A stretch of 12,584 bases of DNA, taken from the IMG/VR virus record IMGVR_UViG_3300031576_000029, positions 64,001 to 76,584 of that record; one strand, given 5' to 3'. The notes under the pieces are model-generated. The model was not told the origin of the DNA. It ran no database searches and saw only the letters and a list, made by a program, of their open reading frames with translations. This document shows positions 10,183-10,285 of this stretch, piece by piece (the first letter of the stretch is position 1; each line of letters opens with the position of its first letter). This stretch comes from a virus. Taxonomy: Duplodnaviria > Heunggongvirae > Uroviricota > Caudoviricetes. The position numbers and the translations under genes are program-made.

Positions 10183-10285
10183 TGCAAAAATCATACCAAA
10201 GAAAATTGGAATGAATCTTGCATATTATTGCAAGAACTATGCCAAGTGAATTGGTACGATGCTTGCTATTGCAAGAATTATACCA
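10183..10285. promoter_or_regulatory. Array of five alternating sigma54 (RpoN) -24/-12 motifs
   Basis: 10183-10198(-) TGGTATGATTTTTGCA; 10207-10222(+) TGGAATGAATCTTGCA; 10229-10244(-) TGGCATAGTTCTTGCA; 10252-10267(+) TGGTACGATGCTTGCT; 10270-10285(-) TGGTATAATTCTTGCA. All keep TGG-N8-TTGC of the TGGCACG-N4-TTGCW consensus. Confidence 0.72.

Follow-up and report, generated by a model that had tools for sequence, protein, structure and literature searches.

Alternating, predicted sigma-54 sites in the divergent control region of an uncultured phage belong to a phage-enriched class of arrays

The stretch of DNA analyzed here (the window, 12,584 nucleotides) is the final 12.6 kb of a 76,584-bp contig from a cave metagenome (IMG/VR record IMGVR_UViG_3300031576_000029, Caudoviricetes), which has a GC content of 31.8% and is estimated to be 87% complete. 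Genes to the left of about position 9160 are transcribed leftward and comprise a GIY-YIG-like gene, auxiliary genes and an endolysin, followed by terminase and portal genes. Genes from position 10487 onward are transcribed rightward and continue at the start of the contig. The first start codon of this early operon (ATG, 10487) is preceded by a strong AGGAGAGG ribosome-binding site, and an early gene at 11799-12167, which a separate description had named an anti-restriction SAM lyase, does match the S-adenosylmethionine lyase family PF23780 (E 2e-13). A search for tRNAs and known RNA families found none. The two gene sets are separated by a region with the following features, given in window coordinates; bit scores were obtained with a weight matrix made only from the arrays of other phages.

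9161-10486, no strand: divergent control region of 1.3 kb without convincing genes, which holds the array (delimited from ORF maps, repeats and promoter-like sites)
10126-10157, no strand: C-rich tract to the left of the array, common to the related contig L217 and a landmark showing that the boxes lie at the same place in both phages
10183-10198, minus strand: box 1, sigma-54-type, TGGTATGATTTTTGCA, 18.7 bits
10207-10222, plus strand: box 2, sigma-54-type, TGGAATGAATCTTGCA, facing box 3, 17.5 bits
10229-10244, minus strand: box 3, sigma-54-type, TGGCATAGTTCTTGCA, the top match of the genome, 23.4 bits
10252-10267, plus strand: box 4, sigma-54-type, TGGTACGATGCTTGCT, facing box 5, 21.2 bits
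10270-10285, minus strand: box 5, sigma-54-type, TGGTATAATTCTTGCA, 16.8 bits
10419-10434, plus strand: sixth box, TGGCACGTTTTCTGCA, with GG-N10-GC spacing and a CTGC ending, 12.7 bits

The five boxes at 10183-10285 alternate in orientation (-,+,-,+,-) and all read TGG-N8-TTGC, as had been reported in a preliminary description of this DNA. Its measurements also hold: the gaps are 8 and 7 bp back to back and 6 and 2 bp face to face, and boxes on the same strand are 46, 45 and 41 bp apart. Start-to-start spacing of the alternating boxes is 23, 23, 22 and 19 bp, within the distribution seen in the class of arrays described below. The preliminary description had further estimated that less than one such motif would be expected by chance in the window. 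We computed an expectation of 0.81 (200 dinucleotide shuffles, largest count 3), compared with six matches found, five of them in the array. At about 0.007 expected per 103 bp, the probability of five boxes in this space is, by our own arithmetic, about 1e-13. In the whole 76,584-bp genome TGG-N8-TTGC occurs 14 times; the nine matches outside the array do not lie near one another, and those checked sit within long ORFs. When the genome was scanned with the weight matrix, the five boxes were five of the six best-scoring sites (16.8-23.4 bits), and all strong boxes of the 76.6-kb genome fell within window positions 10183-10434. Shuffle counts, genome-wide matches and matrix scores together rule out chance or simple duplication as the origin of the array. 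Only boxes 3 and 5 are duplicate-like: they are parts of a 26-nt direct repeat (81% identical, 41 bp apart) and look like the product of a recent 41-bp duplication.

At positions outside the TGG and TTGC cores, A5, Y6, R7 and W16 are present in all five boxes. GG and GC are exactly 10 bp apart in each of them, with GG on one side and GC on the other, which makes every box consistently asymmetric, and each also has weak dyad symmetry (TTGG...GCAA). A C directly after TGG is found in box 3 alone, the other boxes having T (three times) or A (once). With T or A replacing C in four of five boxes, the array is an AT-rich variant in a genome of 31.8% GC. To the left of box 1, at about 10166-10180, lies a possible decayed partner, GAG-N8-TGTC. 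The array thus looks like three face-to-face pairs, of which the leftmost would comprise box 1 and this apparently decayed partner.

Other repeats and promoter-like sites are found in the same control region. Three 18-bp palindromes (TATACC-N6-GGTATA type, 83-100% alike) at 9722-9739, 9763-9780 and 9791-9808 are flanked by an extended -10 pair directed rightward and by a strong sigma-70-like promoter directed leftward (TTGACA-17-TATAGT, 9988-9960, 11/12), and from sequence this looks like an operator set in a face-to-face promoter switch. Two 32-bp tandem repeats (9543-9574 and 9575-9606) are followed by a weaker third copy (9607-9630). Each 32-bp repeat carries TAATGTATAAT, an extended -10 element (TGTATAAT, at 9544 and 9576) directed rightward toward the array. 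The TAATGTATAAT word corresponds to tAATGTAtA, the promoter element of phage phiEco32 gp36 (PMC8948821). It occurs twice upstream of the array, but with 8 copies in the genome for 13 expected there is no enrichment, and we read it as an extended -10 element. An IHF site that a companion description had placed at 10401-10418 was not recovered: there is no exact WATCAANNNNTTR there or elsewhere in 9161-10486, and the site is at best degenerate. The late operons carry another motif, TTAACAACTA, in 10 copies. Outside the window, at genome positions 25136-25510, the phage encodes a member of a small protein family found also in five other array-bearing phages. The member in L254 (14144-14548) matches PF18909, the N-terminal domain of dATP/dGTP diphosphohydrolase (MazZ-like), a hint that the DNA of this lineage is modified, perhaps with 2-aminoadenine.

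Protein-based scans of IMG/VR and JGI metagenomes returned a sole close relative of the window phage, the 80-kb contig L217, which was seen again as L219 and L220; a terminase scan added one distant 7-kb contig without boxes. The SAM lyases of L217 and the window phage are 83% identical, and the flanking genes are syntenic with 68-84% nucleotide identity, but BLAST between the conserved genes gave no alignment of the intergenic DNA. L217 keeps the C-rich tract, followed by a lone face-to-face pair, TGGCCCAATCCTTGCA at 6845 (+) and TGGCATAGTTTTTGCT at 6864 (-), so that copy number is two compared with five in the window array. By our own count TGGCATAGTTTTTGCT is identical to window box 3 at 14 of 16 positions, and in a weak local alignment the same minus-strand box pairs with box 1. 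A further box, TGGCATGAAAGATGCT at 7165, lies upstream of the first early gene of L217 and is co-oriented with it, like the 10419 box of the window. The predicted face-to-face pair is therefore conserved at the same place although the surrounding DNA no longer aligns. The GG-N10-GC spacing, whose loss in a homologous region the preliminary description had proposed as a check, is retained in L217. About 400 bp to the left of its box pair, at 6300-6440, L217 has some 13 tandem 11-bp units (CACTTGATYCC type) that resemble origin iterons; the window has no such 11-bp tandem array at the matching place.

To find further arrays, IMG/VR was searched with a pattern of three alternating cores (GCAA-N8-CCA, TGG-N8-TTGC, GCAA-N8-CCA) with flexible gaps, all other positions being left free. 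At least 119 contigs, with GC contents of 31-61%, matched this three-box pattern, and the arrays of the contigs listed mostly have 3-12 boxes. In 520 unique array boxes from the matches listed, the free positions were C in 85%, A in 91%, Y in 96%, R in 92% and W in 89%. The class consensus derived from these 520 boxes is TGGCAYR-N4-TTGCW, which we take to be the sigma-54 -24/-12 consensus, reportedly established by Barrios et al. 1999. Independent phage arrays thus yield the sigma-54 consensus at positions that the search left free, which bears out the sigma-54-type motif of the preliminary description. Three or more boxes with A-Y-R were present in 102 of the 119 loci listed, giving at least 102 sigma-54-like arrays. 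Counting against the sigma-54 reading, only one of five window boxes has C after TGG, compared with 85% in the class; among the matches listed, T stands at this position in 11% of class boxes, a share that rises to 19% in low-GC loci.

The spacing within and between boxes indicates what is recognized. Inside arrays, the offset from TGGCA to TTGC was 11 in 536 cases and any other offset occurred at most 18 times. More than 150 bp from the arrays, where the pattern imposes nothing, offset 11 was found 140 times compared with about 13 for the others. Spacing between boxes is variable, being 18-22 bp for facing boxes and either 20-25 or 31-35 bp for back-to-back ones. Because the offset within the box is fixed and the spacing between boxes is not, the recognized unit is an asymmetric 16-mer; for a dimer that reads the palindromes, the reverse would be expected. 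Between the paired boxes of class arrays, the four spacer bases agree in 27%, which is the chance level. Together with the invariant in-box spacing and the varying distance between boxes, this agrees with the earlier proposal of selection on the binding determinants and not on the repeat as such. An RNA or DNA hairpin was considered and rejected: the 121-nt stretch does fold better than its shuffles (z -3.7), but it does so through the inverted boxes, and partner spacers are no more alike than chance.

Two observations concern related repeats. In G048, a 57-kb phage (L093 locus, 11983-12273), the 'direct terminal repeat' reported by IMG/VR (record positions 8-127 and 57152-57271) consists of sigma-54 boxes in a 26-bp tandem array, so that the array may have given rise to the repeat call during assembly. 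L151, L178 and L122, from Parabacteroides and Desulfovibrionaceae MAG contigs, have CTGGAAA-N5-TTTGCAA arrays with GG-N10-GC spacing, a 41-42-bp period and AA for CA after GG; these may be a second flavor of the same design.

Such arrays are enriched in phages and rare in bacteria. In 596 Gb of bacterial and archaeal genomes, the pattern matched 96 times and only about seven matches had A-Y-R boxes, namely Desulfovibrionaceae, Elusimicrobiota, Flavobacterium, Deltaproteobacteria, Chitinophagales and Gemmatimonadota MAGs and one contig (L214). A sigma-54 DNA-binding domain is encoded in five of the seven array-carrying bacterial MAGs, rpoN being common anyway. The remaining bacterial matches fell in a conserved gene of Rhodobacterales and other alphaproteobacteria or represented other repeat types. 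Ten Bacteroidales MAGs (L128, L134, L165, L166, L176, L185, L187, L191, L194 and L203) carry many copies of perfect TTGGCAAT-N4-ATTGCCAA palindromes at 22-bp spacing; we excluded these as a different repeat that matched the pattern by accident. Within phage genomes the boxes are concentrated. In 10 of 11 near-complete array-bearing genomes, and likewise in the genome of the window, nearly all boxes lie in a single locus of 0.1-1 kb, compared with 0-1 for a reversed-pattern control. Class arrays sit in regions without ORFs of 100 aa or more, with a median length of 946 bp. No useful match to close cultured relatives or to arrays in GenBank phages came from megablast with the window, from tblastn with two terminases or from blastn with two arrays. 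In the literature that we searched, sigma-54 boxes that are clustered or mirror-paired are not described for phages, in agreement with the preliminary description, which knew of no such phage element.

The main rival to the docking array that we propose below is a bidirectional cluster of sigma-54 promoters, in which plus-strand boxes would serve the rightward early operon and minus-strand boxes the leftward genes, all fired by a host enhancer-binding protein. Early transcription would then follow the sigma-54 and activator state of the host. We consider this somewhat unlikely, although the position of the arrays favors it. The window array lies in a divergent control region, and among 38 class arrays with enough flanking sequence 17 were clearly and 9 partly divergent; in one lineage, all 39 loci have the array upstream of the terminase operon. 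The sixth box of the window has the same orientation as the rightward early operon, with 53 nt between its end and the start codon at 10487, and the 7165 box of L217 also precedes the first early gene. Bacterial sigma-54 promoters such as glnAp2, pspA and nifH have the GG-N10-GC spacing and the TGGCAYR-N4-TTGCW consensus of the class, and are placed like the 10419 box. There is also a phage precedent, since development of Pseudomonas phage YuA depends on host sigma-54, according to a passage of PMC5053324 that cites Ceyssens et al. 2008, and the YuA GenBank record annotates three active -24/-12 promoters.

The orientation of the boxes points the other way. Promoter-like placement was found for the 10419 box only, and box 5, the array member nearest the early operon, points away from it. 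L217 has a lone face-to-face pair, and even-numbered arrays of the class have their ends directed inward in 29 cases and outward in 15. The box nearest the terminase operon is directed toward it in 12 loci and away in 16, at distances of mostly 400-2,100 bp, and 400-950 bp or more is long for a promoter. Given the inward ends and the lack of bias toward the operon, the basic unit is a face-to-face pair rather than a divergent promoter pair. Isolated boxes, judged from crude gene calls, are co-oriented with the downstream gene in 4 cases and not in 9. In addition, with 2-6 bp between facing boxes, each predicted transcription start falls inside the partner box; considering the known footprint, facing boxes would be too close for both sides of a pair to be occupied or to fire at once.

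Bacterial sigma-54 promoters differ from the window array in being single, co-oriented with their gene and provided with an upstream activator site, whereas the window has five alternating boxes in 103 bp, the facing ones 2-6 bp apart, an arrangement almost absent from the 596 Gb searched. Nor does the phage encode a recognizable activator. The preliminary description had suggested looking for an AAA+ enhancer-binding protein, but PF00158 was absent from the phage genome, and 48 of 49 other array-bearing records (eleven of the 49 complete) had none. The one exception gave a borderline AAA+ match (18.3 bits, 21.7 with neighbors, for a cut-off of 20.2; E 6e-5). In YuA, the sigma-54 sites are not clustered but spread over the late region in the orientation of the structural genes, while in the window phage and 10 complete array genomes the boxes occupy one non-coding locus; no TGGCAYR-N4-TTGC array was found in the first 50 kb of the YuA record.

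We also looked for a phage protein that might read the boxes. Clustering of the ORFs within 4 kb of arrays gave no universal neighbor family. The commonest flanking families were terminase, GP88 (PF17338), DUF7227 and unnamed small proteins; GP88/PF17338, DUF7227 and the small ORFs were set aside as array partners, having no known function, and for the GP88-family protein (the only one searched) no relative was found in the PDB. When the proteomes of 14 array-bearing genomes were clustered, no protein family was present in all 14. The widest, DNA polymerase A, was found in 10; seven, the window phage among them, have a capsid-protein family of which the one member scanned was SU10-like. The ten ORFs neighboring the window array include no helix-turn-helix family, and the sigma-54 DNA-binding domain (PF04552) was absent from all 50 records including the genome of the window. 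Since there is no universal neighbor, no protein family common to all 14 genomes and no phage-encoded activator or sigma-54 domain, a host protein with a universal site would be the simplest reader. As seven of the 14 genomes have a capsid-protein family in common, part of the spread of the arrays could reflect lineage inheritance, leaving room for a lineage-specific phage protein.

Such a protein, for instance a repressor, an initiator or a terminase small subunit, could bind the boxes as an operator or iteron array whose site merely resembles that of sigma-54. This reading, which we judge improbable, would accommodate the single locus per genome, the helical phasing of about 21 and 42 bp, the position in a control region near other repeat families, the different copy numbers in relatives (two and five), the weak dyad symmetry of each box and the capsid-protein family common to several array phages. 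The operator arrays and face-to-face promoter switches of temperate phages (lambda OR/OL, 186 pR/pL) are similar: their control regions, divergent or convergent, hold several sites of 15-17 bp spaced by about two helical turns, like those of the window, and mutually exclusive occupancy is plausible. However, the lambda and 186 operators are dyad-symmetric, phage-specific and bound by the phage's own repressor, whereas the array boxes are asymmetric and have one consensus in very different phages. The same 11-position consensus, equal to that of sigma-54, is found in contigs that range from 31-61% in GC content and include several capsid and terminase types unrelated to one another. The GG/GC asymmetry never varies, which would not be expected if a symmetric dimer bound the site, and the half-to-half spacing of the 'palindromes' varies while the spacing in the box is fixed. 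No common flanking or genome-wide protein family was found, and no helix-turn-helix neighbor in the window. For an iteron origin in particular, the phasing and the variable copy number fit, but no initiator could be linked to the arrays, and a consensus held across unrelated phages argues against a phage-specific initiator.

Very unlikely, in our estimate, is an architectural element in which bound sigma-54 would be a host factor for origin melting, would occlude overlapping sigma-70 promoters or would form a roadblock in the early leader; we know of no replication origin that uses sigma-54. Origin- or operator-like repeats do lie nearby (the three 18-bp palindromes and the 32-bp repeats in the window, the thirteen 11-bp iterons in L217), the extended -10 elements at 9544 and 9576 are directed rightward across the array, box 5 is adjoined by a promoter-like site, and repression by sigma-54 bound over another promoter is documented in work cited in PMC4591121, but sigma-70 promoter calls were not enriched (18, compared with 17.3 in shuffles), and the roadblock, an idea of the preliminary description, is weakened by a test in E. 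coli, where intragenic binding of sigma-54 polymerase caused no drop in expression of the genes concerned (PMC4591121).

The window array is a member of a class that is widespread and enriched in phages, with one cluster per genome in a gene-free, usually divergent region and no clear sigma-54 activator encoded. From this sequence class, its consensus, its distribution and its context we infer binding by sigma-54 and a sink function. Our preferred reading, held tentatively and at somewhat less than even confidence, is that the five motifs are predicted sites for host sigma-54 (RpoN), alone or as holoenzyme, arranged in duplicated mirror pairs, and that the array docks or sequesters host sigma-54 polymerase, the 10419 box being its only promoter-like member. 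The orientation-blind layout, the single dense locus, the lack of an activator, the enrichment in phages and the conservation in L217 all point to this reading. The preliminary description had suggested, as possible functions, a decoy for host sigma-54 polymerase, a platform for loading or blocking polymerase, and a tie to the RpoN-controlled state of the host. To our knowledge, no other bacterial sigma factor shares the ability of sigma-54 to bind promoters stably and yet not fire. Its holoenzyme binds DNA in a transcriptionally inactive state, independently of conditions (PMC4591121). On the boxes it would form a stable closed complex in any condition and would not fire without an activator ATPase. 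The array would thereby act as a platform holding host sigma-54 polymerase on phage DNA, and the holding effect would grow as the phage genome replicates. The 10419 box may draw on this local pool of polymerase to drive or gate the early operon. The nearest bacterial counterparts are the 'orphan' or intragenic sigma-54 sites of E. coli and Salmonella, which are bound by holoenzyme without firing (PMC4591121; PMC3844500), and decoy and structural roles for such non-canonical sites have been discussed (PMC4591121). Those sites, however, are single, scattered and mostly intragenic, whereas the phage arrays are dense, mirror-paired and intergenic.

A broader form of the docking hypothesis is that a DNA 'sponge' is present in many phage lineages, a compact set of mirror-paired -24/-12 boxes that works without any phage protein, traps sigma-54 polymerase in dead-end closed complexes and outnumbers the host sites through replication. 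We regard this as doubtful. Its effect would be to silence the sigma-54 regulon of the host (stress, nitrogen, motility and possibly defense genes) or to park the polymerase on phage DNA. The location of the arrays speaks against a sink and also fits promoters: they lie upstream of operons, which in all 39 loci of one lineage is the terminase operon, and for the most part in divergent regions. A pure sink, moreover, requires neither the preferred 19/23-bp spacing nor the alternation of boxes, although duplication of a 42-bp pair could yield both.

Collectively, the boxes are best viewed as predicted sigma-54 sites in a phage-enriched architecture for which we found no published description. 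YuA was the only phage that we found cited as depending on host sigma-54. If the arrays are promoters after all, many phages would tie their earliest or packaging transcription to host activators. Because sigma-54 binds but does not fire by itself, DNA would be all that a virus needs to exploit it, and an element of this kind escapes gene-based annotation. For synthetic biology, an array that works would be a compact element for titrating sigma-54. If the arrays do bind sigma-54, they would be a device for host takeover or host sensing that operates without a phage protein, present in more than 100 uncultured phages over a wide range of GC content.
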